DNA of 35,029 nt from a virus. Its lineage: Duplodnaviria > Heunggongvirae > Uroviricota > Caudoviricetes. The first letter of the stretch is position 1; each line of letters starts with the position of its first letter. The notes under the pieces were generated by a model that ran no database searches, had not been told where the DNA came from, and saw nothing but the letters and a program-made list of their open reading frames with translations. The DNA lies in the IMG/VR virus record IMGVR_UViG_2737471845_000031, positions 1-35,029 of that record. One strand, written 5' to 3'. This document shows positions 3,722-34,864 of this stretch, piece after piece. Made by a program: the position numbers and the translations under genes.

Positions 3722-4872
3722 TTTTTCTTCTCCTTAATCACCGTCGATGTACTGCCATCCGGGTGATAAACCGTGAGTTTCTGAGTTTTTTGTTTTTTCC
3801 CTCTTGTGACTGGCCCCCGTGCCACTTCCAGCTCTGTGGTGTAGCCGCTGTTACGCTCAAACGCATGGCGGGCAGTGATTATCAGCCATGGACCGGATAA
3901 CTGTCCAAAGCCCACCAGTTCAATTTTGTTGCCTGCTGTCAGTTGAGGCGTTCCCGTCAGCGTCAGGGAGCCGTTCTGCTGGTATTCGTTATGTCTGGCC
4001 AGTGCTGAATCCGCTTTAATCCGGGCACTGTCCGGGTCGCTGACGCGGCTGTTAACTTTAAGTGAGTCAGCGCTGGTAACCTTACCGCCTTTGAGCTTTT
4101 TGTCGCTTTCACGGGTACCACCATCAGCTTCGTAGACGATCAGTTTTTTACTGCTGCTTTTCTGGTGTTTTACCTTTGCAGATTTATAGACCCGGTTGAT
4201 GGTGTCACGCAGGGAAAAGCAGGCCACATCCTGCGGTTTTAACTGCCTGACCGGCTCCTGACTGCGCAGTGTGGCCAGATGAGAAAAAATCAACTGGTCA
4301 CTGACCACTTTCACTGCATAACCATACTCGCTGGCCAGCCGGCGCAGAAAACCCACGTCGGTTTCAGCATACTGGGTCACCCGGTCGATTCTGATGGACT
4401 CAATGCTGCCCACCAGTTTCAGCCGGTGCTTTCTGGCAATCCGCCCCGCAACAGCTGCCAGCGTGGTGTTCTCAAAACCACGGCTGGATTTAGTCCGCAG
4501 AGCACTGTTAACCGAGGTGGCCACCCCACGGATAGCGACAACGGACGCGGGCGAACTCACTTCGATCTCGTCTATTGAGAATGTACCGCAGGACAGCAGT
4601 TTCTCGCCCTGATAACCCATTTTCAGCGTCAGCGTGTCACCCTTGCCCGGATACCACTTATCCAGCCAGCGGCCATCGGTGTCGTCCAGCTCCACCTCAA
4701 TGGTATCGGACTCATTTTTGATGTTATCGCTCCAGACCACACGGGTGACATAAGGCGCGATATCAGAGGTGATGTTTTTCTGCAGATACCACAGAGTGAA
4801 TACCGGCGTCAGCACATCGCTGACGCCGGTTAACGCTGATGTGGCTTGCGCAGTACTGTTTATCTCAGCCAT
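3718..4872 (-). CDS. tail/baseplate hub protein (P2 gpD / Mu P-like)
   Basis: 384-aa ORF following the tail protein X-like gene; size and position match the 'late control D' tail proteins. Confidence 0.65.
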   Translation of the reverse strand: MAEINSTAQATSALTGVSDVLTPVFTLWYLQKNITSDIAPYVTRVVWSDNIKNESDTIEVELDDTDGRWLDKWYPGKGDTLTLKMGYQGEKLLSCGTFSIDEIEVSSPASVVAIRGVATSVNSALRTKSSRGFENTTLAAVAGRIARKHRLKLVGSIESIRIDRVTQYAETDVGFLRRLASEYGYAVKVVSDQLIFSHLATLRSQEPVRQLKPQDVACFSLRDTINRVYKSAKVKHQKSSSKKLIVYEADGGTRESDKKLKGGKVTSADSLKVNSRVSDPDSARIKADSALARHNEYQQNGSLTLTGTPQLTAGNKIELVGFGQLSGPWLIITARHAFERNSGYTTELEVARGPVTRGKKQKTQKLTVYHPDGSTSTVIKEKKK

Positions 4873-5075: not shown

Positions 5076-5956
5076 ACACTCCTCGTCAGTATTCTGGCGG
5101 CCATTGCACTTAATCCCGGAGACATGCGGTTGAATGCTGTGCCGGCGGCGTTAAGCTGCCCGGAAACGGTATCCAGAGCACCTGCAATATTTCTTTTGTC
5201 CACACCACTCAGCGCCGACTGCGCCTGCTGTACATACGTGGCTGCCTCACTGGCTGTTCTGGCCAGACTGATGGCATCGGGCATGGATTCAGAGAGTGCA
5301 TTAAACGCCGGAATACTTTTCCCCAGAGCGCCGGATATATTACCCAGTCCGCTCATCAGTCCCGGCACACGGGTCAGCGCGACAACGGGGTTACCCTTCA
5401 TTTTCTGCGCCACCCGAACGGCACTGATAGTGGTCTGGAGTACAGACTGCGCCTGTTTCGCATAGTTGACGCCGTTACGGACGAACTGCGCCACCCCGGA
5501 AGGCGATGGAACAGCACCCGATACAGCTCCGGCACCGGGAACCTGCCTGCGTATTGCCGGCGGTTGCAGAGGATTTTTCGGGTCACCGGTGTATTCCCGG
5601 AGAGACACGGTGGCACTGACAGCCAGCACGTTACCGGTGCTGTCTGTCTGCTCGCTGGTTGCGGTCACATCGGTAATCACGAACCAGCCGCGATAGTCAC
5701 CGTTGCCGAAGACCAGCGCCAGTGCCTGATGGGCCTTCATGGCTGTTCGCACTCTCGCCAGCTCCACGTCGGGCACACAATAATGCTGATGGAAGACCAG
5801 GCTTATCTGGATTTCGTCCAGCCTGTCGCCGACAAACTGCAGGCCGGGTTTACCCTCGATGCGGGCATGCTCCGCATAATCGACGCCAAACGTGGCCTCG
5901 AAGCCGTCCCAGTAGGTAATCAGTTCAAACTCAATATCACCCAGTACGGCAAACAT
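5072..5956 (-). CDS. tail protein downstream of tape measure (Mu N / DNA-circulation-like position)
   Basis: 294-aa ORF directly after the tape measure gene with stop/start overlap; the Mu N position. Family assignment is tentative. Confidence 0.45.
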   Translation of the reverse strand: MFAVLGDIEFELITYWDGFEATFGVDYAEHARIEGKPGLQFVGDRLDEIQISLVFHQHYCVPDVELARVRTAMKAHQALALVFGNGDYRGWFVITDVTATSEQTDSTGNVLAVSATVSLREYTGDPKNPLQPPAIRRQVPGAGAVSGAVPSPSGVAQFVRNGVNYAKQAQSVLQTTISAVRVAQKMKGNPVVALTRVPGLMSGLGNISGALGKSIPAFNALSESMPDAISLARTASEAATYVQQAQSALSGVDKRNIAGALDTVSGQLNAAGTAFNRMSPGLSAMAARILTRSV

Positions 5957-8421
5957 CAGCTGTACTCCTTACGTTGTTTCTGAGCCAGCAGACGCTCCAG
6001 CATTTTTTCCAGCTCATGCAGGCTCATATTCAGGGCACCAGCCAGCCCGGCAGGCGCTGCGGTTTCCTTACCATTGAGGAAAAACTGAGGATTAAAGCTG
6101 ACCTGGATACCGCCAGACGCTCCACCGCCGGTTGCAGTTGCGCCACGGCCTGAATATCCGGCAGCCATGATTTCCGGCGACGGGATACGGGGAACATCCG
6201 GTGTCATTTCAGCGGCCAGGCGCTGCCCGGCCAGTGCAGCAAGCGGAGTGGTCCGTTGCAGGCCAATGGCGGCACCCTGCGCGATATTGTCACCAAAGCC
6301 TATAAACACGCGACTCGGTGAATGGATGCCCAGCTTTTCGCTGAACCAGTCACTGATGCTGTCACCCATTCCGGTTATGCTGGTTTTCAGTGACTCCCAT
6401 TTGTTTCTGATGCCATTTATCAGCCCGTCGATAAGATGACCACCGAAGTCGGTGAACTTCGCCGGCAAATCAACGCCGAGATATTTCAGCGCAGCCGCAA
6501 AGGCTTTATAAAGCAGACCCGCCGGAGACCAGTTAACCAGCAGTTTACCAATTCCCGCGATGCCGCCGTTAAAGGCTTCCTGAATGTCAGCCCAGCGCTG
6601 TTTAAACCAGCTACTGACTGCGCCCCAGTTGCGGTAGATAAGGTAAGCTGCTGCCGCGACGGCGGTGATAGCGAGACCGATGGGATTCATCATCAGCGCC
6701 CGGCCAATCCAGAGAAGGGCACGTGCAGCAATCATAAAACCGCGAACGAGGCTGCCCGCCAGAACTTTGCTGAGTTTCAGTCCTCCGCTGGCCAGCCGGC
6801 TGAATCCAGTGACAAGCCAGCGTAATTTGCCACCTTCTCCGAGTGCGGTAGTCAGTCGACGCCAGTTGGTCCGCAGTAAAACAGCATTTTTCCAGACGCT
6901 TACAAAGGGGGAAATAAGGAGATTCAGCCCAAGCTTGAGACCGATAGTGGCCATCCTGAAAGCGAGTAATGCGCCCACAACCTTTATGGTGCTGCTGACG
7001 AGCTGCGGATTTGCCGCTATCCATTTGCCGACGCTGTCCATTAAAGGAATAAATGTTTCACCCAACTGGAGCAAAGCCGGACGCAAGGATTGCCCGATGC
7101 TGATAGCAGAATCATTAAAGCCGATCTGCATTCTGCGCCAGCGACCTTCAAGCGTATCATTCTGCTTTGCAGCATCCTTATCCAGGGTAGACATTGCAGC
7201 CGGAGCATTCATTTCCTGCTTACTGGAAAGGTATTTATCCCAGCCCTGTCGCATTGACAGTAAATGGTTGACAGTCTGAATATCGGTAAAGACCTCAGCC
7301 AGACCAAATGACTCCATGAGTTTCTGCTGACCTTCCTGATCGCCTCTTGCTCCTGCAGCTTTCCATTGCTGCAAAAACGCTTTGCCTTTACTGTCGATAA
7401 AACGGTTGGCAATCATCAGTGAAGCTTCGTACTGCGAAAAACCCTGAGCGACGTAATTCTGCATTGACCCCTGGTAATCCACCCCGGCTTTAGCATATTT
7501 CTGGATGGTATCTCCGCGGCCCATTGCTGCCAGCCAGTTGGACATATTGGTGACCGCTTCCTCTGCAGAGCCACTACCTTTACCGACCTCCAGACTGGCA
7601 ACAATCTGGGTAATCGCATCTTTTCCATAAATGCCACGGGCAGCGAAGGCTTTAGCCATACCGGGTAATGCTTTTGCCATATCCTTCAGCTCAAATGACC
7701 CAAGTTTGGCTCCTGTTGCCGCAATACCAAATGCCTGTTCAAGTTCTTTCGCATCAGTGATTCTGAGTGCATCGCTGAAGGCATAAGTCATTTTGGCAAG
7801 GTCGGTCATATCGGCTTTGGTTGCTGTAGCGGTCTTTCCAAGCATCTCTGCAAACGTTGCTGCCCGTTCGGGGGCCATACCATCAGCAACTAATTGTCCG
7901 ACTCCCCCTAACAGAGACTCCTGCAGTTGGTTAACCTTCAGCGAGGCCTGTCTGATAGCCAGGCCAATTGCACGTTCCTGTTTTGCATCCAGGTCTCCTG
8001 TGACACTGATATCCCGTAACTGTGATTCAAACGAGGCATATTGTTTAACCGAGGCCATGACCGGTGCGCCCAGCGTTCTGCCAATAGCATAGGTTTCTGC
8101 ACCCTGACCATAGAGCGCCAGGCGGTTAGCCTTCAACGCATCACCGGTGGCTGATACTGCTGACAGACGGCGCTGCTGACGTTCAATTTGCTCCATGGTG
8201 CGGCTTACCCGCAGCAACTCGCTGTTGAGATGCTGCATCCGGGAAGAACCCAGTTGACCATAACGTTCTGTTGCCCGGGTTAAGGCATTCTGGCGTTCCT
8301 GCAGACGGCGGGAGGTATCACCAAGGGAATCAAGGGCGCGTCGGGTGCCACTGACGGCTGAGCGGAAGCTGCTCCCGACAATGCCGCCAATAATGACGCC
8401 GACTGAAAATTCACTGGCCAC
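5956..8421 (-). CDS. tail tape measure protein
   Basis: 821-aa ORF, the longest in the tail module, mostly helical/Ala-rich with hydrophobic segments; located after the chaperone gene. Start is GTG at 8421 (AGGA RBS). Confidence 0.85.
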   Translation of the reverse strand: MASEFSVGVIIGGIVGSSFRSAVSGTRRALDSLGDTSRRLQERQNALTRATERYGQLGSSRMQHLNSELLRVSRTMEQIERQQRRLSAVSATGDALKANRLALYGQGAETYAIGRTLGAPVMASVKQYASFESQLRDISVTGDLDAKQERAIGLAIRQASLKVNQLQESLLGGVGQLVADGMAPERAATFAEMLGKTATATKADMTDLAKMTYAFSDALRITDAKELEQAFGIAATGAKLGSFELKDMAKALPGMAKAFAARGIYGKDAITQIVASLEVGKGSGSAEEAVTNMSNWLAAMGRGDTIQKYAKAGVDYQGSMQNYVAQGFSQYEASLMIANRFIDSKGKAFLQQWKAAGARGDQEGQQKLMESFGLAEVFTDIQTVNHLLSMRQGWDKYLSSKQEMNAPAAMSTLDKDAAKQNDTLEGRWRRMQIGFNDSAISIGQSLRPALLQLGETFIPLMDSVGKWIAANPQLVSSTIKVVGALLAFRMATIGLKLGLNLLISPFVSVWKNAVLLRTNWRRLTTALGEGGKLRWLVTGFSRLASGGLKLSKVLAGSLVRGFMIAARALLWIGRALMMNPIGLAITAVAAAAYLIYRNWGAVSSWFKQRWADIQEAFNGGIAGIGKLLVNWSPAGLLYKAFAAALKYLGVDLPAKFTDFGGHLIDGLINGIRNKWESLKTSITGMGDSISDWFSEKLGIHSPSRVFIGFGDNIAQGAAIGLQRTTPLAALAGQRLAAEMTPDVPRIPSPEIMAAGYSGRGATATGGGASGGIQVSFNPQFFLNGKETAAPAGLAGALNMSLHELEKMLERLLAQKQRKEYS

Positions 8422-8513
8422 GGTGGCTATCCTCTGAAAGCAAAAAAACGGAAGGGAAGTGTCTGAACCCCATGCAGAACAGCCGCGACTGGCGGCTGTT
8501 AAGTGATACGTTG

Positions 8514-8771
8514 TTACTGATTGTCGCCGAACTCGCTTTTGATTTGCTCTTCAGCCTGCTCCAGCCACATCTCCAGATCGTCAGTATCGAGGGCATCAAT
8601 CTCCCCCGGCTGAAACCTGAACCATCTCGCCAGCAGGCCCTGCGCCTGCATCAGTGTTTTTGTCGCTCTTGCCCAGCCCAGTGATTTTCTGAAATCGTTT
8701 CTGCAGCTCCATATAGTCGGCAAGATCCATGTTATCGAGGTCTTCCGGGAGGATACCGGTGCTACGGGCAA
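8514..8771 (-). CDS. putative frameshift extension of the tail assembly chaperone (E'-like)
   Basis: Second ORF overlapping the 3' 176 nt of the chaperone gene. Frame opens at 8771 directly after a stop, has no ATG, and encodes an acidic tail (DDLEMWLEQAEEQIKSEFGDNQ). It is in the +1 frame relative to the chaperone. Confidence 0.3.
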   Translation of the reverse strand: MPVAPVSSRKTSITWILPTIWSCRNDFRKSLGWARATKTLMQAQGLLARWFRFQPGEIDALDTDDLEMWLEQAEEQIKSEFGDNQ

Positions 8772-8937
8772 TCAGTGGTTCGTCCCAGTCTGCCGGGTCT
8801 TTGTTGATTTTGCGCACCTGCTTCAGGTCTTTTACTGTCAGGCGTTTCAGTTCAATCTGTTCAATTCTGGTACCTGCAGCAGTGGTGAAAGGATAAGACA
8901 GCGTAAAAGTATCGGACTGGGTCTGTGACATGATCAT
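8596..8937 (-). CDS. tail assembly chaperone (P2 gpE / Mu gp41-like)
   Basis: 113-aa ORF between tube and tape measure genes; ATG 8937 with AAGGAG RBS; sequence pattern LKRLTVKDLKQV...ADYMELQKRF typical of this chaperone family. Confidence 0.65.
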   Translation of the reverse strand: MIMSQTQSDTFTLSYPFTTAAGTRIEQIELKRLTVKDLKQVRKINKDPADWDEPLIARSTGILPEDLDNMDLADYMELQKRFQKITGLGKSDKNTDAGAGPAGEMVQVSAGGD

Positions 8938-9028
8938 ACTCCTTTGTAAATTCAGAGCAGTATGTCTGGCGGTGGACGTGACGGATATTAAAGGAGATTA
9001 AGAAGAAGGGGCCGGAGCCCCTGTGATG

Positions 9029-9310
9029 TCAGCAAGTGCGAAAACCCTTGCAGTTACGCAGGAAAGCGATGAGAAGCGCCTTTCCCTCAGATTTGCCGAT
9101 GCCGGAGAACCAGTGGTCGGGCGGCTCCCATGCTTCAATCAAATCGGCCAGTTTGCGGGCCTTTGAACGTGTGCAGTCAATCGGGTCATTGGTTTTACGG
9201 GTATTAAAAAGGGTTTCCACCCCCGGAATATCAAGGAGGGTAAACCACGTACCATTTGACATGCCCAGTGACGCACATCGCCCTCCTTTGTCAGTCAGTT
9301 CAACACTCAC
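9029..9310 (-). CDS. hypothetical protein (small gene between tube and chaperone)
   Basis: 93-aa ORF, GTG start 2 nt after the tube stop with a CGGGGG RBS, followed by a GGGGC/GCCCC hairpin. No recognisable family. Confidence 0.35.
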   Translation of the reverse strand: MSVELTDKGGRCASLGMSNGTWFTLLDIPGVETLFNTRKTNDPIDCTRSKARKLADLIEAWEPPDHWFSGIGKSEGKALLIAFLRNCKGFRTC

Positions 9311-9312
9311 CG

Positions 9313-9834
9313 TCAGCCCCCGATATTGATCCGATAGTCAGTCAGTTGATCAACGCCACCGACGCGGAAGATGTTGGCCAGATAGTCCAGTTGCAGCAAC
9401 TCTTCACCATCCAGTACCTGTCTGATATACGTGCAGGTGAAGCTACTGGAGAACTCGGCGTTCTCGTGCTGTTTAAACGTCCCCAGCGGGTTCTTCTTGA
9501 ACATAATTGTCAGGAAGGTGACCAGCGGGATTTCGTCGATCAGCCCCTGCGAGCTGTAGCGCTGGACGCTGGAGCGACACTGCAGCGCCAGCGACTTGTA
9601 CGGGTTCGCGGCAGACAGCATCGCATCGCGGTAAAAGCTGTTCCATTTGATTTCGCCTTCCAGTTTGTCAAAACCAGCCGGGAGTTCCACCTTACCCACC
9701 ATCCCCAGTGCCTTGTGTTCCTGCATAATCATGGAGACATCGGGGAGTTTAACCTCCTCAGCCCGTCCCAGCAGGTTAGTACCATCCAGATAGATGTTGG
9801 CATTCGTGATTCGGTTTATCTCAATCTTTGACAT
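9313..9834 (-). CDS. major tail tube protein
   Basis: 173-aa ORF immediately after the sheath gene (TGATG stop/start overlap); C-terminal region ...YIRQVLDGEELLQLDYLANIFRVGGVD... resembles P2 FII-type tube proteins. Confidence 0.8.
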   Translation of the reverse strand: MSKIEINRITNANIYLDGTNLLGRAEEVKLPDVSMIMQEHKALGMVGKVELPAGFDKLEGEIKWNSFYRDAMLSAANPYKSLALQCRSSVQRYSSQGLIDEIPLVTFLTIMFKKNPLGTFKQHENAEFSSSFTCTYIRQVLDGEELLQLDYLANIFRVGGVDQLTDYRINIGG

Positions 9835-11261
9835 CAGTTGCCCCCTTTCAGGGTTAACAGGTATTCCGAGGTGATCTCAGTCTCAAACGTCAGTCGCTCC
9901 AGCGGCGGTGGTGGCGTATATTTGTAGCTCAGCAACAGGTGCCCGGCGGCCAGCTCCGTTTCCGGATTGCGGGCCGGATCAAACCAGCAACGGAAGCCCA
10001 GTACCGCGCCATCACCAGTCATTTTGCGACCGTAGGCGTTGACCGACTCCGTCAGTGCATCAATCAGCGCCTGAGTAATCGGCATGTCGATGTACTGCTG
10101 GCTGAAGTAACGAATGGACTCATTGATCACATCACCGGTGCGGCGAACGTTCTCAAAGTTACGCATATGGGTGACCGTTGGCCATGCTGCCGTCCGGTTA
10201 CCCCACAGACGAAGGCCGCTGCCGTAACTGCTGAATACCGTGGTGATCCCCTGTTCGTTAAGCAGGTTCACCTCGCTCTGCGGATCGTCAATCATTGCCG
10301 ACAGCTGGCGCTCCACGCCGGTGATCCCCAGAATTTCCTGATTGGAGGATGACCACCAGTACCCTTTGTCCAGGTCGACTTTGGCACGCAGGCCCGCCGC
10401 ACGCTGGCTCAGTGGCTCCAGACGTTCCGTGTTCGTCACCGGGTCATATACCTTCACATGCGGGTAGCACAGGCGGACACGGTCAGAGCTGGTATTAAAG
10501 TTAATGGTGCCTTCCGGGCCTCGTCCCGCCAGAGCCTGCGCAAAAGTGGTACCAACCGGCGCATCAATATAGGTTACTGCTCCCAGTTTCTCAGCCATGG
10601 CGATAAGCTCAACCGAGACGCTGTTCTGGGTGCAGAATACCGGAGCAATCAGGATTTTGGCGAAGTAGCCAAACAGGTTAAAACTGTCGTTAAGCAGCTT
10701 CATGCCGGTACGGTTGCCTGCAGCGTTAACGGTACCGATGATATCAGCCGGGGTGACTTTGGTCGGATCAGCATAGTTATAGCTGGCCTTCACCGTTGCA
10801 TCTGCAGCAATGCTTTTACCCAGGTTAGTAATCACCCCGGTCTGTGCATCAAGCGAGTAGTCCTGACCTTCAACATAAGGCTGACCGTCGCTGTCCGGTT
10901 TCAGTACCAGCTGCGCGACCACCGGATTAGCCAGCCGGGCTCTGCCTGTCGCCTTGTCGAACGACACATTCTCACTGACCACAGCGGTTTTATGCACAGA
11001 CGGATCGAGTACGTTAATGACCAGAACGGTGCCTGCACCATGGTCATAAATCGCATCCAGCGCCTGTGGAATGGTAAAGCCGGTGAACTGGCTGCCAAAT
11101 GCCGCAGCGTCTTTCTCAGACAGGCACTGTACCAGCGTATTGACATCCCCCATTGGTGCGGTACCAATCAGGCCAATAACGGCAGATTTCACCGTTTTAA
11201 CCGGGCGGGCACCGTTTTCCACTTCAATGGTTTCCGGACCATGCAGATAGTTAGCTGACAT
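9834..11261 (-). CDS. tail sheath protein
   Basis: 475-aa ORF with GGAGG RBS, located upstream of the tube gene; size and position characteristic of contractile-tail sheath proteins. Confidence 0.85.
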   Translation of the reverse strand: MSANYLHGPETIEVENGARPVKTVKSAVIGLIGTAPMGDVNTLVQCLSEKDAAAFGSQFTGFTIPQALDAIYDHGAGTVLVINVLDPSVHKTAVVSENVSFDKATGRARLANPVVAQLVLKPDSDGQPYVEGQDYSLDAQTGVITNLGKSIAADATVKASYNYADPTKVTPADIIGTVNAAGNRTGMKLLNDSFNLFGYFAKILIAPVFCTQNSVSVELIAMAEKLGAVTYIDAPVGTTFAQALAGRGPEGTINFNTSSDRVRLCYPHVKVYDPVTNTERLEPLSQRAAGLRAKVDLDKGYWWSSSNQEILGITGVERQLSAMIDDPQSEVNLLNEQGITTVFSSYGSGLRLWGNRTAAWPTVTHMRNFENVRRTGDVINESIRYFSQQYIDMPITQALIDALTESVNAYGRKMTGDGAVLGFRCWFDPARNPETELAAGHLLLSYKYTPPPPLERLTFETEITSEYLLTLKGGN

Positions 11262-24525: not shown

Positions 24526-25290
24526 ATGAAAGAACAATCTTTACCCATCGTCCCCTGGATTGGGGGAAAACGTCGTCTGGCCAAACACATTCTGCCTCAG
24601 TTCCCACTCCATACCTGCTATGTGGAGCCATTCTGCGGCGCAGCAGCACTTTATTTTCTCAAGACTCCCAGCAAGATCGAAGTCATTAACGATATCAACG
24701 GTGAACTGGTAAATCTGTATCGGGTAGTAAAGCATCATCTGGAAGAATTTGTCCGCCAATTCAAATGGGCGCTGGTTAGCCGGCAGATCTACAAATGGCT
24801 GCAGATCACCCCGGAAGAAACACTGACGGATATCCAGCGTGCGGCACGGTTCTACTACCTCCAGAAGCAGGCGTTTGGGGGCAAGGTGGCAGAGCACAGC
24901 TTCGGCACCTCCACCACCTCCCCGCCACGCTTCAACCTGCTACGGATTGAAGAAGAACTGTCAGCGGCACACCTGCGGCTTTCCAGAACGGTGATAGAAC
25001 ACATGGACTGGCACCAGTGCATTAAGCGTTATGACCGTCCGCACACGCTGTTCTACTGTGATCCGCCCTATCTGGGGACGGAAGGCTATGGTGTGGATTT
25101 TCCTGAAGAGAACTACACACTACTCGCAGAACTGGCACGGTGCATCAGAGGAAAGATGATTATCTCGGTGAATGACATTCCGCAGATGCGTCGGGTGTTC
25201 ACTGAACTGAACATACAGACGGTGAATATCAACTACAGTCTGGCGGGGAAACCCACGCCACGCCGTGAACTGGTAATCTGCAACTTCTGA
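24526..25290 (+). CDS. dam: DNA N6-adenine methyltransferase (Dam family)
   Basis: 254 aa from ATG 24526; N-terminus LPIVPWIGGKRRL, FCGAAAL SAM-binding-type motif and catalytic DPPY, as in Dam-family N6-adenine methyltransferases. No adjacent restriction endonuclease gene. Confidence 0.85.
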   Translation: MKEQSLPIVPWIGGKRRLAKHILPQFPLHTCYVEPFCGAAALYFLKTPSKIEVINDINGELVNLYRVVKHHLEEFVRQFKWALVSRQIYKWLQITPEETLTDIQRAARFYYLQKQAFGGKVAEHSFGTSTTSPPRFNLLRIEEELSAAHLRLSRTVIEHMDWHQCIKRYDRPHTLFYCDPPYLGTEGYGVDFPEENYTLLAELARCIRGKMIISVNDIPQMRRVFTELNIQTVNINYSLAGKPTPRRELVICNF

Positions 25291-25768: not shown

Positions 25769-25797
25769 TTGACTGGTGAGATAATCTGCACCATAAT
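25769..25797 (+). promoter_or_regulatory. early promoter (sigma70-like) with candidate operator repeats
   Basis: TTGACT (25769-25774), 17-nt spacer, CATAAT (25792-25797), ~47 nt upstream of the first early gene. TCTGCAC occurs twice (25754, 25785) and ATAATCT twice. Confidence 0.55.
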
Positions 25798-30268: not shown

Positions 30269-30538
30269 ATGAAATCCATCACAGGTATCAACCAGCAAAT
30301 CAGCAAAGTGCAGTCAGCCATTATGGCGCTTATGGCAACGAACACGGATGTACAAAGCATCACCATCAGGGGCAATAAACCTGTCATCCGCGTTTCCCGG
30401 AGTGCGCATTGCATGCGCATGCTTGAACAGGGGAAAGCCAGTTATCTGTATACCGGTCATGACCACAGGGGACATTTCCGTCAGGGCGTTTTCGAACTGC
30501 ACGGCTGTCGCGTCGTGTGGCCGGAATCTTTGTGGTAA
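30269..30538 (+). CDS. hypothetical protein
   Basis: 89-aa ORF with AAGGGG RBS, between the ATPase and gam. Confidence 0.4.
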   Translation: MKSITGINQQISKVQSAIMALMATNTDVQSITIRGNKPVIRVSRSAHCMRMLEQGKASYLYTGHDHRGHFRQGVFELHGCRVVWPESLW

Positions 30539-30565
30539 TCAGCACAACCGGAGAAATCATAAAAT

Positions 30566-31096
30566 ATGGCAAAAAGTACAAAAGGGGCAAAACGTATCAA
30601 GTCCGCAGCGGCACTCTGGGTACCGGGGACACGCGAAGAGGTCATTGAGGGCATCAGACTGCTCGGTGACGCACAACGTGAACTGGTCAGGGCTGAAACA
30701 GAAATGAATGACGCCATTGGCGATATCACCGCACGTTATGCCCCGCTCACCGAGAGCCTGAAAAAACGCATGTCAGAACTGCAGTCCGGTATCCAGACAT
30801 GGTGTGAGGCACACCGTGATGAACTGACCGGCAACGGGAAGGTGAAGTTCGCTAACCTCACCACCGGCGAGGTGCAATGGCGAAACCGTCCGCCATCAGT
30901 CAGTATCCGTGGAGCGGATAATGTTATTGAACTACTGAGACGTCTGGGGCTTGAGCGCTTTATTCGTGTAAAAGAGGAAATAAATAAAGATGCCATTCTG
31001 AATGAAAAAGAGGCCGTGAAAAATATTCCCGGCATTACCATAAAAAGTGATATTGAGGATTTTTCAATAATTCCTTTTGAGCAGGATGTGCAGTAA
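30566..31096 (+). CDS. gam: host-nuclease inhibitor Gam (Mu Gam family)
   Basis: 176-aa ORF closely resembling Mu Gam along its length (KRIKSAA..., PPSVSIRG..., GLERFIR..., IEDFSIIPFEQ). Confidence 0.85.
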   Translation: MAKSTKGAKRIKSAAALWVPGTREEVIEGIRLLGDAQRELVRAETEMNDAIGDITARYAPLTESLKKRMSELQSGIQTWCEAHRDELTGNGKVKFANLTTGEVQWRNRPPSVSIRGADNVIELLRRLGLERFIRVKEEINKDAILNEKEAVKNIPGITIKSDIEDFSIIPFEQDVQ

Positions 31097-31193
31097 ACAC
31101 ACCACGTTAATTATTTAATAAAAACATTTTCTTTTTTATTCCGGCGTCAGCGCCGTGGGCTTCTGCACGCCGGAAACAGAGGAGAATTAAATT

Positions 31194-31388
31194 ATGATAT
31201 TTAAATGTATTCAGTGCGAGAGGGATATAACAGCCCTGCGTTTTCACAGCGCCATCGCCGTGATGTCCGGTAAATACCACGTACCTGCAGTACGCGTCAC
31301 CCTGGTCTGTCCGTACTGCAGTCAGCATTTTTCGGCAGATGTGCCCGTTATGGAATTCTCCCGCCCTGACAGGGAGGAAGCGCAATGA
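31194..31388 (+). CDS. small zinc-ribbon protein
   Basis: 64-aa ORF with GAGGAG RBS and two Cys pairs (CIQC ... CPYC). Confidence 0.4.
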   Translation: MIFKCIQCERDITALRFHSAIAVMSGKYHVPAVRVTLVCPYCSQHFSADVPVMEFSRPDREEAQ

Positions 31389-31657
31389 TTACCCCACAGG
31401 AAGCACATCAGCGCACCCGCGCCCTTGTTGAACGGTATCTCAACGAGTGTGAATGCCGTGACCTCACCGATATCATGTGCGCCCTGACGGCGTTAATCAG
31501 CATGGCCACGCAGGCCATTGTGGCGACTAACGGAAAGGAGGCCGCCCTGCAGATACTAGTGAACACACTCACCCACGCGGCAGAGCACGAGGTGCCGTAC
31601 CGGATGGAAATCACTGCAGAAGGCGACCTGCACATCATTGTTGACCGGAAGCACTGA
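31385..31657 (+). CDS. hypothetical protein
   Basis: 90-aa ORF translationally coupled to the upstream gene. Confidence 0.4.
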   Translation: MITPQEAHQRTRALVERYLNECECRDLTDIMCALTALISMATQAIVATNGKEAALQILVNTLTHAAEHEVPYRMEITAEGDLHIIVDRKH

Positions 31658-31666
31658 GGGCGCGGC

Positions 31667-31963
31667 ATGACACGGAACACCATACTCACCCGCACCGCCC
31701 TCTACCGTCTGGCCCTGCAGCGTTTCGGGCCGGACGCACAGGCCCTGAAACTGACAGAAGAGGCCGCTGAACTGGCGGCCAGTGCTGCCCGCAATCTGAA
31801 CGGACAGGGCAGCGAAAGCGACCTCGCGGCAGAGCTGGCAGACGTGGAAATCATGACAGAGCAATTGCGCCTTCAGGGGATGGACCGGCTGATTGACTTC
31901 CACAAACAGAAAAAACTGGAACGTCTGGCTGCACGACTGGGCGTGATTTACACGAACGAGTAA
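31667..31963 (+). CDS. MazG-like nucleotide pyrophosphohydrolase domain protein
   Basis: 98-aa all-helical ORF with MazG-type pattern LKLTEEAAEL ... ELADVEIMTEQL ... K..LERL. Confidence 0.5.
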   Translation: MTRNTILTRTALYRLALQRFGPDAQALKLTEEAAELAASAARNLNGQGSESDLAAELADVEIMTEQLRLQGMDRLIDFHKQKKLERLAARLGVIYTNE

Positions 31964-31977
31964 CCGGGAGGCATTCA

Positions 31978-32193
31978 ATGGCTGACATACTCAGGGAAAT
32001 CACCGCATGGATACTGATTCTTACTGGCCTGGCGACATGCCTCAGTGCGGGGGCAGCCCTGGCTGCCCTGCTGATGCACATAACAACACAGTGGTTATGG
32101 GAAAAGCTTAAAGCAGCATACAGCCTGAAAGAGCTGTCCGACGCTGTCCGGGCATGGAAACGGCAGAAAAATACCGGAGATACAGAACAATGA
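31978..32193 (+). CDS. small membrane protein
   Basis: 71-aa ORF with one TM segment (AWILILTGLATCLSAGAALAALL). Confidence 0.35.
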   Translation: MADILREITAWILILTGLATCLSAGAALAALLMHITTQWLWEKLKAAYSLKELSDAVRAWKRQKNTGDTEQ

Positions 32194-32873
32194 CAGACCA
32201 GAATAAACACATTGAGAAACTGAAAAAGTTGCTGGCGCTGGCCGCATCCGGCAACCCGCACGAGGCCGCTCTGGCACTGCGCCGAGCCCGTAAACTGATG
32301 GATGTTCACGGCATCACACATTCCGACATTGCTATGAGTGATATTGATGAAACCATCAGTCATTACTGGCCGACAGGCAGTCTCCGTCCACCGCGCTACA
32401 TGCTGGGCCTGATGAACATCATCCGCGAGGCATTTGGTGTTAACTCCATCATTCACCCCGGCACGCATCCGTCTGTGGGGTTCTACGGTAACCGGGAACG
32501 AGCGGCACTGGCTGCGTACACCTGGGAAGTGCTGGTCCGCCAGCTGAAAAAGGCGCGTCAGCAGTATATCAGCGCACAGAACAAAAGAATAAAAAACGCC
32601 ACCCGTACCAGCCGTGGAGACCAGTTTGCTGAAGGCTGGGTACTGGCCGTTATCAGTAAAATACAGTCCTTTGCCCTGACCGATGATGAGCGTGAACTGA
32701 TGCAACAGTGGCTGGAACATAAATACCCGCAAACGCAAACCACCAGGGCGCGTCAACCGGGAAGAAGCCGCAATGGCGACGCCTCGCGCTATGCGGGGTT
32801 TCGTGAAGGGCAGAACGTCAGACTGCACCGCCCGGTCAGTGGGCAGGAACAACAGAAACTGGAGGCCAGATGA
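32190..32873 (+). CDS. conserved phage protein (DUF2786-like N-terminal motif)
   Basis: ~227 aa from ATG 32190 (GGAGA RBS); N-terminal IEKLKKLLALAASGNPHEAALALRRARKLM motif typical of this prophage family. Confidence 0.5.
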   Translation: MTDQNKHIEKLKKLLALAASGNPHEAALALRRARKLMDVHGITHSDIAMSDIDETISHYWPTGSLRPPRYMLGLMNIIREAFGVNSIIHPGTHPSVGFYGNRERAALAAYTWEVLVRQLKKARQQYISAQNKRIKNATRTSRGDQFAEGWVLAVISKIQSFALTDDERELMQQWLEHKYPQTQTTRARQPGRSRNGDASRYAGFREGQNVRLHRPVSGQEQQKLEAR

Positions 32874-33100
32874 TTACGCTATCAGGTAACAGCCGGAAAT
32901 TAAAAGCCTGCCGAATATCTGCCAGATACCTTTTTGCCCGCGCCTTTTTTAAGAACGTCAGGCCGGGGATCACAATTGGTGTTATTGCCGGACGCGAACA
33001 GGTTGAAAAATACATGTCAGGTGCATGGTGGAATAACGACCCTGTCATTGCTGCCCGTAATATTCATATCAGTTGGGGGGATATTCAGAATGACTGCTGA
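32870..33100 (+). CDS. hypothetical protein
   Basis: 76-aa ORF coupled to the upstream gene; weak support. Confidence 0.3.
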   Translation: MITLSGNSRKLKACRISARYLFARAFFKNVRPGITIGVIAGREQVEKYMSGAWWNNDPVIAARNIHISWGDIQNDC

Positions 33101-33305
33101 ATCTGTTGTATGTGCCCTGTTCTGGTATTGTTTTGTCGGTTGGTGTACTGCTGAACTGCACCGCCGTTCAGGGTTTTATTCACGTTACAGTGGTGCCGGC
33201 TACTGGATTAGCTGGTCGGTGATGTTCCTGTGCTGGCCTGTGGCGCTTCCTTTATATGTCGATTATATCGGTGGCGCAGGTAAAAGGAGCAACGATGATG
33301 ACTAA
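33090..33305 (+). CDS. small membrane protein
   Basis: ~71 aa from ATG 33090; two hydrophobic segments. Confidence 0.35.
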   Translation: MTAESVVCALFWYCFVGWCTAELHRRSGFYSRYSGAGYWISWSVMFLCWPVALPLYVDYIGGAGKRSNDDD

Positions 33306-33747
33306 ACAACGTCTTATCCAGCTCATTCATATTGCCCGTAATGAACTGGGTATGGATGAAGACACCTACCGCCAGATGTTACAGGGGCTGACCGGTAAAG
33401 CCTCAACCAAAGGAATGGATACCACACAACTAAACTGCGTGCTGGAATCCATGAAAAGGAAAGGCTTTCGCGTTAAGCCTGCCGGAAAAGCCAGCTCCGG
33501 TTTACCGCTGGATAACCATCCGCAGTCCAGGAAAATCCGTGCGCTATGGCTTGAAATGGCTGCTGCCGGCATTGTTCGTGACCGTTCAGAAAATGCATTA
33601 GCGCGGTGGATCAAGCGGGAAACGGGCATCAGCGCCCTGCGCTGGCTCAATACTGAACAGGCAAGCAGTGTTATTGAGAAACTGAAGAAGTGGCAGCACA
33701 GAGCTGCGGGAGTAAAACATGAGCGACCTGAATCAGTTTCGAAGTAA
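33295..33747 (+). CDS. gemA: GemA-like regulatory protein (Mu gp16 family)
   Basis: ~150 aa from ATG 33295 (AAGGAG RBS); N-terminus KQRLIQLIHIARNELGMDEDTYRQML typical of GemA/gp16 proteins; immediately upstream of mor. Confidence 0.7.
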   Translation: MMTKQRLIQLIHIARNELGMDEDTYRQMLQGLTGKASTKGMDTTQLNCVLESMKRKGFRVKPAGKASSGLPLDNHPQSRKIRALWLEMAAAGIVRDRSENALARWIKRETGISALRWLNTEQASSVIEKLKKWQHRAAGVKHERPESVSK

Positions 33748-34117
33748 AGGGCCGGAACTCCTGGTGGAGCTGGCACAGCATACCTCTGAGACCGTTCGCG
33801 AGATTATTGATATTGAGCCCGCAATTGCCGACCAGATTGGTCAGGCCGTCGCGAACCGAATGATGCAGGTCTGGGGCGGGCAAAACGTTTATTTCCCGAT
33901 GGGCATGGTATGGAAGGTCAGTCAGCGCGACCGGGAAATCTTCAGGGAGTTTAACGGACGCAACCACCACGAACTGGCCCGCAAGTTTGGTGTTTCGCTT
34001 CAGTGGGTCTACAGCGTGGTTAAGCGGGTCAGAAAAGAAGAACTGGATCGGATGCAGGGCAGGTTGTTTGATGAAGATCTGCCAGAGGAGACGAAAGACG
34101 TTAACAAATCCAGATAA
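33719..34117 (+). CDS. mor: Mor/C-family transcriptional activator
   Basis: 132-aa ORF with the Mor/C C-terminal HTH region FREFNGRNHHELARKFGVSLQWVYSVVKR; last gene of the early operon; the only Mor/C homolog in the window. Confidence 0.8.
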   Translation: MSDLNQFRSKGPELLVELAQHTSETVREIIDIEPAIADQIGQAVANRMMQVWGGQNVYFPMGMVWKVSQRDREIFREFNGRNHHELARKFGVSLQWVYSVVKRVRKEELDRMQGRLFDEDLPEETKDVNKSR

Positions 34118-34160
34118 TTCCTGCTTGTTAAAGTCCTTTCAAAAATCTCCTTATTGTATA

Positions 34161-34193
34161 AAAGCACGGTAGACCCCTTACCGTGCTTTTTTT
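34161..34193 (+). terminator. rho-independent terminator of the early operon
   Basis: 11-bp perfect stem AAAGCACGGTA / TACCGTGCTTT with 7-nt loop, followed by a T-run, 44 nt after the mor stop. Confidence 0.75.
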
Positions 34194-34231
34194 ATGCTCT
34201 CTCTTTAGTATTCAGGATGCAGGGAGAAAAT

Positions 34232-34864
34232 ATGTTTGACGTTTCGTTGTTAAATCTGCCATGGGCAACACTGGTGACCCTGACCAGTGGCTATATTGGG
34301 TATTTTATTGCGAATGTGGGACTGAAGGATCACCACAAGCCCATTGAGGTGACTTTTTCTTCGCTGATTTTTGGCCTGACAGCAATGATGGCTTACCAGG
34401 CTGTTATGTGGGCAGGTCTGAATGCCTGGCTGGCAACACCACCAGCACTTCTGTGTGCCGTTACATGCGGTGCGTGGTGGCGCAGGTACGGTCGCAAATG
34501 GATGTACAGATTACTGTGGAATAATGATATTTCATGGTCTGACGATACCAGCTCAGCATGGCAGGCAATGTTTGATCAAACAGGCTTCAGCGTTACCGAG
34601 GTCAGAGTGATTCTTCGCGATGGTTCCGGTATGATGTCACGGCTGCCAGGGAACTTTGAAGAGTGGCCTAACGGTCCGTTTACCCTGGGGAATAAAGGCG
34701 ATATGGTTCTTTACGTCACGCACAGCAGCCCTTCAGGCAGTAACGAATGGGAAGAGTATAAAGGCGTGGTTGATAAGTACTGGGGAGCTCTGGCAACCTA
34801 TATTCCAGCAGATCAGATTGCCAGAGTGGAGATCAGGCGCGTTCGTGCAACGAACGATGAATGA
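34232..34864 (+). CDS. hypothetical membrane protein with soluble C-terminal domain
   Basis: ~210 aa from ATG 34232 (GGGAGA RBS); the ORF-track start 34154 overlaps the terminator. Three predicted N-terminal TM segments, then a hydrophilic domain. Phage or host origin unclear. Confidence 0.5.
   Translation: MFDVSLLNLPWATLVTLTSGYIGYFIANVGLKDHHKPIEVTFSSLIFGLTAMMAYQAVMWAGLNAWLATPPALLCAVTCGAWWRRYGRKWMYRLLWNNDISWSDDTSSAWQAMFDQTGFSVTEVRVILRDGSGMMSRLPGNFEEWPNGPFTLGNKGDMVLYVTHSSPSGSNEWEEYKGVVDKYWGALATYIPADQIARVEIRRVRATNDE

Follow-up and report, generated by a model that had tools for sequence, protein, structure and literature searches.

Which functions does a transposable prophage carry in the stretch between gam and gemA, and are they directed at the host cell? 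The window studied here, that is, the whole stretch of 35,029 nt that was analysed, is a BcepMu-like transposable prophage, and a run of small genes lies between its gam and gemA genes. To our knowledge, none of the early accessory genes of this prophage family has been studied to date. Our analysis indicates, with moderate confidence, that the cluster is the variable, non-transposition tail of a BcepMu-like early operon of about 8.3 kb, and that it probably serves to condition the host for replicative transposition.

Results

Seven genes between gam and gemA

A first-pass annotation of the window had placed seven small ORFs between gam and gemA. The ORF listing agrees with this, as does the RefSeq/PGAP annotation of E. 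coli M-17, which carries the identical prophage: 31194-33305 holds exactly seven plus-strand coding sequences, named o1 to o7 here (Table 1), and the bounds given were exact, with 31194 as the start of o1 and 33305 as the stop of o7. A purine-rich Shine-Dalgarno sequence is located 5-10 nt upstream of each ORF. Between o1 and gemA there are seven junctions; at five of them the genes overlap by 4-11 nt, three times as a 4-nt ATGA overlap. Where gaps occur inside the cluster they measure at most 14 nt. The GC content of the cluster is that of the adjoining phage genes.

Table 1. Features of the early region of the prophage, with positions in the window.
Feature	Position	Strand	Description
Promoter-like site	25769..25797	+	TTGACT-17-CATAAT; consensus scan, 10/12 matches; candidate early promoter
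gam	30566-31096	+	Host-nuclease inhibitor, upstream anchor; Phage_Mu_Gam E 5.5e-41, phrog_491 E 1.8e-73
Structured intergenic element	31126..31187	+	RNA fold dG -29.2 kcal/mol, z -4.9
o1	31194-31388	+	64 aa; four-Cys zinc ribbon; first gene after gam
o2	31385-31657	+	90 aa; orphan
o3	31667-31963	+	98 aa; predicted MazG-like all-alpha NTP pyrophosphohydrolase
o4	31978-32193	+	71 aa; predicted single-pass membrane protein; optional cassette
o5	32190-32873	+	227 aa; DUF2786 + DUF7168
o6	32870-33100	+	76 aa; orphan; optional cassette
o7	33090-33305	+	71 aa; probable two-pass membrane protein; two allele classes
gemA	33298-33747	+	Downstream anchor; Pfam GemA E 1.6e-40; PGAP 'gp16 family protein'
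mor	33719..34117	+	Middle/late transcription activator, last operon gene; PGAP 'Mor transcription activator family protein'; tblastn to Mu Mor and C
Terminator-like hairpin	34160..34190	+	Strong, intrinsic type, operon end; 13-bp stem then T-run; terminator scan

All seven genes are under purifying selection, with pairwise dN/dS values of 0.08-0.37 among prophage variants. PGAP calls every one of them, and all have a PHROG match that spans the whole protein or nearly so. In o1, only the plus-strand frame is open in every variant (dN/dS 0.08), and even homologues with about 30% identity retain the four cysteines of its product. Together with the Shine-Dalgarno sites, this makes it hardly credible that some of the seven are spurious gene calls, even though the annotators of Escherichia phage PhiKM (PQ738613, Bcepmuvirus) skipped o1 in favour of a minus-strand CDS and o6 offers little variation to judge by (dS only 0.048). 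The minus-strand CDS of PhiKM opposite o1 is interrupted by stops in some variants and has no family match. Minus-strand ORFs of the cluster, including a 333-aa antisense ORF opposite o5, were likewise rejected as genes, having no match to any Pfam or PHROG family.

An early operon-like layout

From about 25.8 to 34.1 kb every gene is located on the plus strand, and the genes have an operon-like layout. The promoter-like site sits in the annotated divergent repressor/early-gene region and, judged by its sequence, may be the promoter of the operon that holds the cluster. The operon would then start with this promoter at about 25.8 kb, continue with the transposase, a B-like ATPase, gam, o1-o7, gemA and mor, and close with a terminator at 34.16-34.19 kb. 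Consensus scans found no promoter-like or strong terminator-like site between 31.1 and 33.3 kb; a stable hairpin follows gam. The layout and the analogy with Mu suggest that the cluster is part of the early operon. Upon induction or infection, o1-o7 would be co-transcribed with the transposition genes and their translation would be partly coupled.

Flanked by gam and gemA, the cluster has the transposition genes (A and B) on its 5' side and a mor-type activator on its 3' side. It is syntenic with Mup11-Mup15 of Mu, between gam (Mup10) and gemA (Mup16). The region of Mup11-Mup15 lies within the semi-essential early region of Mu (PMC4553209), and the synteny hence places our cluster inside the Mu-type semi-essential early region, as had been proposed from the first reading.

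o3 is a predicted MazG-type pyrophosphohydrolase

The MazG-like pyrophosphohydrolase named in the first-pass annotation corresponds to o3, which has a MazG/HisE-type helical fold and the metal motif E32-x2-E35-x20-E56-x2-D59, in agreement with the pattern E-x2-E-x(12-28)-E-x2-D. The residues E31, E32, E56 and D59 are invariant, and E35 is found in 17 of the 21 aligned homologues (K in one, a gap in three). The protein itself stays under the gathering thresholds of the Pfam families MazG (PF03819) and PRA-PH (PF01503), with 14.5 bits against a cut-off of 21.3 bits; the best member of the o3 family reaches E 4e-4 for PRA-PH and E 0.019 for MazG. Searches of PDB sequences with o3 and with the o3 profile gave no significant match. 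Comparison of the profile with E. coli MazG and with gp06 of BcepMu by hhalign was not significant either, with the catalytic motif stretch alone being aligned. The family is confined to BcepMu-like phages of Enterobacterales, and tblastn against 50,697 phage records returned BcepMu-like relatives only.

Among the seven proteins, o3 is the sole one with a predictable activity, that of a MazG-type nucleotide pyrophosphatase. It would be Mg2+-dependent and would cut NTPs or alarmone nucleotides at the EExxE...ExxD site, which provides a directly testable enzymatic hypothesis.

o5 belongs to a widespread family of DUF2786 and DUF7168 proteins

The protein first described as DUF2786-like is o5. 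It exceeds the Pfam gathering thresholds for an N-terminal DUF2786 (PF10979; 42.9 bits against a cut-off of 23.9, residues 20-56 of the 239-aa ORF) and for a subsequent DUF7168 (PF23771; 94.9 bits against 25.5, residues 58-200 of the same ORF), and is thus a full-length member of the DUF2786/DUF7168 family (phrog_421). The protein is basic. It has a helical hairpin at its N terminus and an alpha/beta core that looks KH-like, in which the canonical KH order beta-alpha-alpha-beta-beta-alpha with a GXXG loop between two helices was not found. A PDB sequence search with o5 gave no significant match, and the literature searched holds passing mentions only of DUF2786, DUF7168, PF10979, PF23771 or phrog_421. 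We consider it probable that o5 binds single-stranded nucleic acid.

Homologues of o5 number in the hundreds and are found on phages as well as conjugative plasmids. In transposable phages of Enterobacteria and Pseudomonas they keep the position between gam and gemA at about 35% identity, on conjugative plasmids they are located among small genes without known function, and large lytic phages whose hosts are unrelated also carry them. The presence of the family in such different phages and in plasmids fits general DNA or RNA handling as well as anti-defence. A pairing of DUF2786 proteins with a small membrane partner was considered and rejected, since the neighbours in H72, BR58b and plasmids of Acinetobacter and Yersinia are unrelated and mostly soluble. 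For a family without assigned function, o5 is the most useful handle. Its place is fixed, and the E. coli prophage that carries it is inducible and open to experiment.

o1, o2 and o6 are a zinc ribbon and two orphans

The zinc-ribbon protein of the first reading is o1 (phrog_3401, E 2.8e-40). Its cysteines C5/C8 and C39/C42 (CxxC...CPxC) are conserved in all divergent homologues. No Pfam zinc-ribbon family scored above threshold with o1. The family is tiny, with 10 representative clusters found by phmmer among 1.84 billion proteins, and no domain fusion was seen among the relatives in this set of representatives.

The two proteins that had been called hypothetical, o2 and o6, are indeed orphans without assignable function. 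For o2 (phrog_3691), 37 homologues were found, nearly all in E. coli, with 51-100% identity and mosaic alleles. The allelic hot spot is the N-terminal half, and the highest values of nucleotide diversity, 0.08-0.09, are reached over 31406-31525. With a dN/dS of 0.29 and a raised dS, positive selection on o2 was rejected as an explanation; the high dS points to the exchange of old alleles, which fits better. The product of o6 matches phrog_3681 (E 4.4e-54). The gene is lost in two relatives (L039 and L041), replaced by a 135-aa phrog_1621 gene in two others (L003 and L024) and split by an IS3-family insertion in one more (L025). All three proteins, o1, o2 and o6, may be small binders of some partner.

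o4, o7 and the turnover of cassettes

Two small membrane proteins had been proposed. For o4 (phrog_3958) this is clear, with a transmembrane segment that reaches a Kyte-Doolittle maximum of 2.02 over residues 12-30. For o7 (phrog_6436, E 2.4e-14), which has two aromatic hydrophobic stretches, the maximum is 1.51, and it is hence only probably a membrane protein. Both would insert into the inner membrane.

The interval between gam and gemA varies from 400 to 3466 bp across 76 loci, which comprise 66 distinct sequences. Some relatives have o4 and o6 while others lack them, and the sites of greatest diversity are o2 and o7; in close relatives o4 is either missing or replaced by a 67-70% identical allele together with an extra gene. 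Two allele classes of o7 are about 41% identical, and nucleotide diversity rises to 0.32 over 33086-33325. Among the cassettes that relatives carry here is one with a match to phrog_1518, 'host nuclease inhibitor'. The block is thus an array of cassettes that undergoes turnover, and it probably evolves by gain, loss and allele exchange of cassettes among related prophages.

A structured element follows gam

The intergenic element between gam and o1 folds more stably than every one of 200 shuffled sequences. Its core is a GC hairpin at 31139-31175, and in the predicted fold a U-tract (31126-31135) pairs with the Shine-Dalgarno region of o1 (31178-31187). The element is thus predicted to sequester the ribosome-binding site of o1. 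It occurs as a single copy in the window (covariance model, 86.6 bits), and a search of the whole window at gathering scores gave no match to an Rfam family. Three near-identical E. coli variants each have one broken pair in the hairpin.

Phage Mu has the same architecture after gam, and so do 34 of the 38 distinct post-gam sequences from relatives. The covariance model recovered BcepMu-type hairpins strongly and Mu-type hairpins marginally (18 bits, E 0.11), and in the MAFFT alignment the stems of the two types are one column out of register. Because of the marginal recovery, the two types can be said to share their architecture alone and not an established homology. The element probably sets how strongly the cassette block is expressed in comparison with the conserved block A-B-gam. 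It may thereby explain how conserved and variable early genes are expressed separately in Mu-type phages.

The prophage is common in E. coli

The region 31100-33350 is 100% identical to the prophage of E. coli M-17, which adjoins an otsA fragment, uspC and flhDC in the RefSeq/PGAP annotation. The cluster was found in 640 of 5426 complete E. coli genomes, and 617 E. coli genomes carry at least 80% of it. Strains EC958 and uk_P46212 are among them, which we take to belong to the pandemic ST131 lineage. The prophage family is thus present in about 12% of complete E. coli genomes, and its early accessory genes would be expressed in very many induction events.

Discussion

Our analysis shows that the seven genes are real and laid out like an operon, and it shows the folds and motifs of o3 and o5, the turnover of cassettes and the distribution of the block. 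When the genes are expressed, what their products do biochemically and how they act on the host are inferred. NCBIfam gave no match for any of the seven and searches of PDB sequences gave nothing significant, in line with the earlier statement that most of these proteins have no assignable function. The likeliest role of the gene products is to prepare the host cell for replicative transposition.

A narrower interpretation is that the cluster is an anti-defence island, active against restriction, abortive infection or nucleotide signalling, in which o3 may work like Atd1 on (p)ppGpp or signalling nucleotides. Host takeover and anti-defence had been put forward in the first reading, and no test in this analysis supports either function. 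We regard the anti-defence interpretation as rather doubtful. The cluster is located in the early operon beside gam, a known host-nuclease inhibitor, and its relatives carry the phrog_1518 cassette at the same position. Cassette turnover with the allele diversity at o2 and o7 adds to this, as does the occurrence of o5 homologues on conjugative plasmids among small uncharacterised genes. Moreover, the MazG-like protein Atd1 of Pectobacterium phage PcCB7V blunts TIR-STING toxicity, and thus protects against it, by hydrolysis of (p)ppGpp (bioRxiv 10.1101/2022.06.09.495361). Turnover and the Atd1 precedent are, however, circumstantial support. A cyanophage MazG is reported not to hydrolyse alarmones (PMC6850273), so that the precedent is not general; substrates differ among the published phage MazG enzymes (bioRxiv 10.1101/2022.06.09.495361; PMC6850273). 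None of the seven proteins matched a PADLOC defence-system model, and among the families searched here no similarity to known, characterised anti-defence proteins was found. The dN/dS values are below 1 throughout, and the divergence of o2 comes with a high dS. The spread of o5 to large lytic phages of unrelated hosts, together with its stable placement in transposable phages, looks more like a core DNA or RNA function.

Another interpretation is that o5 and o3 are helpers of phage DNA metabolism and not directed at the host at all. In this case o5 would bind nucleic acid at intermediates of transposition or replication, while o3 would sanitise or balance the dNTP pool. The conserved place of o5 in Enterobacteria and Pseudomonas phages and its basic, KH-like nature fit such a role, and the same region of BcepMu holds an annotated pyrophosphatase, an HU protein and an SSB-like protein. 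MazG enzymes are classically house-cleaning NTPases (PMC10014863). On the other hand, Mu transposes without any homologue of o1-o7. Furthermore, o5 is missing from three close relatives (L044, L045 and L049) that have the same transposition genes, and o3 is missing from two (L040 and L043). On balance we hold this proposal to be rather unlikely.

A more far-reaching combination appears improbable to us: that o3 counteracts abortive infection in the manner of Atd1, that o5 is a general establishment factor which, for phages and conjugative plasmids alike, masks or protects single-stranded or linear DNA as it enters the cell, and that the RNA after gam is an undescribed translational gate of Mu and BcepMu types that doses the accessory genes. 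It is very unlikely that the small membrane proteins and orphans are morons for lysogenic conversion or superinfection exclusion expressed from the resident prophage, since, despite the two small hydrophobic proteins o4 and o7 and the high frequency of the prophage in clinical E. coli lineages, the cluster has no promoter-like site, matches the adjoining phage genes in GC content and consists of tight, partly overlapping genes in an early operon, which is repressed in Mu-type lysogens.

Taken as the tail of an early operon that conditions the host, the cluster leaves present knowledge intact. Its limits are clear, but as a set of phage genes without assigned function it is nothing out of the ordinary.

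Comparison with known systems

Among MazG-like enzymes, the known systems nearest to o3 are the MazG protein SSO3215 (1vmg), HisE, the integron iMazG (2q5z) and phage Atd1. It is small and single-domain, as are iMazG and Atd1, but it stays under the Pfam MazG and PRA-PH thresholds.

A close relative is phage PhiKM, which has 96% nucleotide identity over the cluster and the same gene order; it differs by another o7 allele (41% identity) and by an o2 allele that is 83% identical. In Burkholderia phage BcepMu, the type member of the genus, the same operon segment comprises gp07-gp03 between the B-like gp08 and the GemA protein gp02. The pyrophosphatase annotated there, gp06, is not significantly similar to o3. 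BcepMu also differs in that it has no annotated gam; instead, it carries DUF3164, HU and a DUF2528 protein, described in the record as single-stranded DNA binding.

Unlike Mu, our prophage shows the BcepMu-type organisation, with the late genes on the opposite strand, and it has a Tn552/rve-type transposase and an ExeA-like B protein. A tblastn comparison of o1-o7 with Mu gave no match with E below 0.1, and homology to gp11-gp15 was thus not found. What Mu and this prophage have in common is a same-strand run of small genes, annotated without function, between gam and gemA-mor, and a structured gap of about 97 nt 3' of gam.

Results

Prophage and gene calls

A search of the complete E. coli genomes revealed that positions 31100-33350 match the chromosome of E. 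coli strain M-17 with 100% identity; there the prophage adjoins a truncated trehalose-6-phosphate synthase gene, uspC and flhDC. Moreover, Escherichia phage PhiKM, whose record gives the genus Bcepmuvirus, is 96% identical across 30500-34200. Of 5426 complete E. coli genomes, 640 carry the cluster, 617 of them with a coverage of 80% or more. Among 711 places, the only plasmid-borne copy lies on CP088398.1 (352748-353428; a 377-kb E. coli record), with an o5 that is 97.8% identical.

The late genes occupy the minus strand (1-22.3 kb). On the plus strand, between about 25.8 and 34.1 kb, lie the repressor region, the transposase, the B-like ATPase, gam, the cluster, gemA and mor. In the identical prophage, PGAP also annotates a DNA adenine methylase gene (about 24526-25290, plus strand) that precedes the repressor region and is not part of the early operon; as an anti-restriction candidate it is more obvious than any cluster gene. 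Where Mu has kil, the B-like gene and gam are separated by an 89-aa gene (30269-30538, plus strand; phrog_2041, function unassigned), which is 35-61% identical between relatives, compared with 82-94% for the B-like gene and 74-79% for gam at the same loci. Near the prophage end, after the terminator-like hairpin that follows mor, 34154-34864 encodes a hydrophobic protein of about 210 aa, for which no NCBIfam or PADLOC match was found.

The seven small genes o1-o7 were called at 31194-33305 by the first-pass annotation. These coordinates are exact, the ORF listing and PGAP agree, and the flanks were identified as gam and gemA (Pfam E 5.5e-41 and 1.6e-40). A Shine-Dalgarno-like sequence precedes each gene, and neighbours either overlap, three times by ATGA, or are separated by at most 14 nt. 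Pairwise dN/dS, determined from 24-42 related loci per gene, is 0.08 for o1, 0.29 for o2, 0.13 for o3, 0.37 for o4, 0.09 for o5, 0.37 for o6 and 0.33 for o7; therefore all seven are under purifying selection in the called frame. The record of PhiKM (PQ738613) has a hypothetical CDS opposite o1 (4608-4829, about 31107-31330 of the window, minus strand). The o1 plus frame is the sole frame open in all variants; conservation favours o1, and the opposing CDS has probably been annotated in error. No Pfam or PHROGs match was obtained for minus-strand ORFs of the cluster, and spurious calls among the seven genes are essentially excluded.

Features of the cluster and its surroundings (window positions)
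Feature	Position	Strand	Size or structure	Basis
Promoter-like site	25769-25797		divergent repressor region	consensus, 10/12 matches
Structured intergenic element	31126-31187		GC hairpin 31139-31175 inside clamp	RNA folding
o1	31194-31388	+	64 aa	ORF listing, PGAP
o2	31385-31657	+	90 aa	ORF listing, PGAP
o3	31667-31963	+	98 aa	ORF listing, PGAP
o4	31978-32193	+	71 aa	ORF listing, PGAP
o5	32190-32873	+	227 aa	ORF listing, PGAP
o6	32870-33100	+	76 aa	ORF listing, PGAP
o7	33090-33305	+	71 aa	ORF listing, PGAP
Terminator-like hairpin, very strong	34160-34190		right after mor; 13-bp stem, then T-run	

Encoded proteins

The functional labels of the first-pass annotation held. The proposed zinc ribbon of o1 consists of CxxC (residues 5-8) and CPxC (39-42), both kept in homologues from other enterobacterial prophages down to about 30% identity. 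This gene persists in the interval more than any other and invariably comes first after gam in the compared loci; among 1.84 billion proteins its family forms 10 representative clusters, with no domain fusions seen. Of the two supposed membrane proteins, o4 has one clear transmembrane segment, and the case of o7, with two aromatic hydrophobic stretches, is less firm. The hypotheticals o2 and o6 match only PHROG families without assigned function.

The MazG-like label of o3 can be accepted at the level of fold and motif. The protein matches phrog_2245 ('nucleoside triphosphate pyrophosphohydrolase'; E 2.8e-34), and its matches to Pfam PRA-PH and MazG are sub-threshold. In 21 aligned homologues, all from Enterobacterales, E31, E32, E56, D59, E61 and E65 are invariant, and E35 is present in 17. 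Because these acidic residues yield the MazG motif E32-x2-E35-x20-E56-x2-D59, we accept o3 as a member of the all-alpha NTP pyrophosphohydrolase superfamily and a putative enzyme.

For o5, both DUF2786 and DUF7168 exceed the Pfam thresholds, as the DUF2786-like label implied. In the predicted model (pLDDT 86, pTM 0.78), a helical hairpin at the N terminus is followed by a beta-alpha-beta-beta-alpha core and further helices. The modelled core lacks the first KH helix and the GXXG loop; it resembles KH domains but does not belong to them. The protein is basic (pI 10.2), and a structure search gave 30 predicted viral structures at E <=1e-3, all uncharacterised. Homologues occur in 178 phage records (Ralstonia, Pseudomonas and others) and 283 plasmid records, 226 of them conjugative and mostly from Acinetobacter. 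The Pseudomonas transposable phages H72 and BR58b likewise carry the homologue between gam and gemA. In NZ_CP016302, a conjugative plasmid of A. baumannii, the homologue belongs to a series of small unassigned genes (5244-9971) upstream of parAB. One gene of this series is H-NS-like and another is a short 'type I R-M subunit M' fragment; the series resembles plasmid establishment or leading-region gene sets.

Cassette turnover

Eighty viral contigs encoding Gam relatives (61-99% identity) were compared. The gam-gemA interval is between 400 and 3466 bp long, and 76 loci contain 66 distinct interval sequences. More distant relatives retain only subsets, for example o1, o3 or o5, together with other small unassigned genes, one of which matches phrog_1518 ('host nuclease inhibitor').

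Exchange is also seen in close relatives, prophages that share 94-100% identity with the window in A, B, gam and gemA. Some loci lack o4, and elsewhere it is a 67-70% identical allele accompanied by an extra 127-aa gene; o6 is missing in some, gives way to a 135-aa phrog_1621 gene in others and is split by an IS3-family element in one. In the latter locus (L025, 8417-9630), the inserted DNA, about 1.26 kb, encodes IS3-family-like orfA/orfB transposases in minus-strand ORFs, which suggests that o6 is dispensable for prophage maintenance. Two allele classes of o7 are about 41% identical, and o2 is 69-83% identical in most loci, compared with 93-100% for its neighbours. Across 17 collinear variants, nucleotide diversity has two maxima, one in the 5' half of o2 (31406-31525; 0.08-0.09) and one in o7 (33086-33325; 0.32), and is mostly below 0.04 elsewhere. 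Since the o2 alleles are mosaics of a few N-terminal types and dS is raised along with dN, we read their divergence as a sign of old alleles being exchanged, not of demonstrable positive selection.

RNA element after gam

Neither a promoter-like site nor a strong terminator-like site was found inside the cluster by consensus and terminator scans. The sole sizeable gap, 97 nt after gam, has a stable predicted fold (dG -29.2 kcal/mol, z -4.9), in which a U-tract (31126-31135) pairs with the Shine-Dalgarno region of o1 (31178-31187). The outer pair of the hairpin shows a C-G to U-A double change in two relatives, and one pair is broken in each of three near-identical variants. The element is missing where the next gene abuts gam. 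A canonical terminator was ruled out on either strand, and Rfam held nothing resembling it. After gam, Mu (6340-6426) and Mu-like contigs carry an AT-rich box, a TTTCTTTT tract, a 7-bp GC stem and the Shine-Dalgarno sequence of the next gene; the stem sequence differs from that of the window, whereas the arrangement is the same. A covariance model gave a single match in the window (86.6 bits) and recovered the Mu-type element only marginally. We infer that, between the conserved A-B-gam block and the cassettes, the element serves to gate translation or mRNA stability.

Discussion

Overall, our data identify the cluster as the accessory part of the predicted early operon in a transposable, BcepMu-like prophage. 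Its genes are real, co-oriented and probably in part translationally coupled, and they evolve as exchangeable cassettes. We consider it fairly probable that their products condition the cell during early lytic development. Here o3 would contribute nucleotide hydrolysis and o5 nucleic-acid binding, while the zinc-ribbon, orphan and membrane proteins would act on host partners.

The first-pass annotation thus stands as an observation, and in part only as an interpretation. Its proposal of an anti-defence function is possible, with a fairly low probability. Position, cassette turnover and the precedent of Atd1, a phage MazG-like enzyme that hydrolyses ppGpp and protects against TIR-STING toxicity (bioRxiv 10.1101/2022.06.09.495361), form its entire basis, and PADLOC found no defence genes. 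A cyanophage MazG is reportedly unable to hydrolyse alarmones (PMC6850273). About equally likely is a phage-intrinsic role of o5 and o3 in DNA metabolism. A role as morons or in lysogenic conversion is unlikely because of the operon layout.

Of the products, o5 is of interest as a DUF2786-DUF7168 protein spread across mobile elements and found here in a tractable setting, and o3 as a putative MazG-like enzyme that can be tested. The conserved post-gam RNA element is a third source of modest interest.

As the first-pass annotation proposed, the cluster occupies the position of the semi-essential early region of Mu, which has five genes (Mup11-15) at the same place, unrelated to o1-o7. BcepMu carries there an annotated pyrophosphatase, DUF3164, HU and an SSB-like protein. 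The pyrophosphatase, gp06 (NC_005882, 2668-3105), lies in the equivalent early segment and has only an ELAD-type motif stretch in common with o3, hhalign being not significant; nucleotide pyrophosphatases may be a recurrent theme of this early region. The cluster is an uncharacterised instance of an already known region type, the Mu-type semi-essential early region (PMC4553209).
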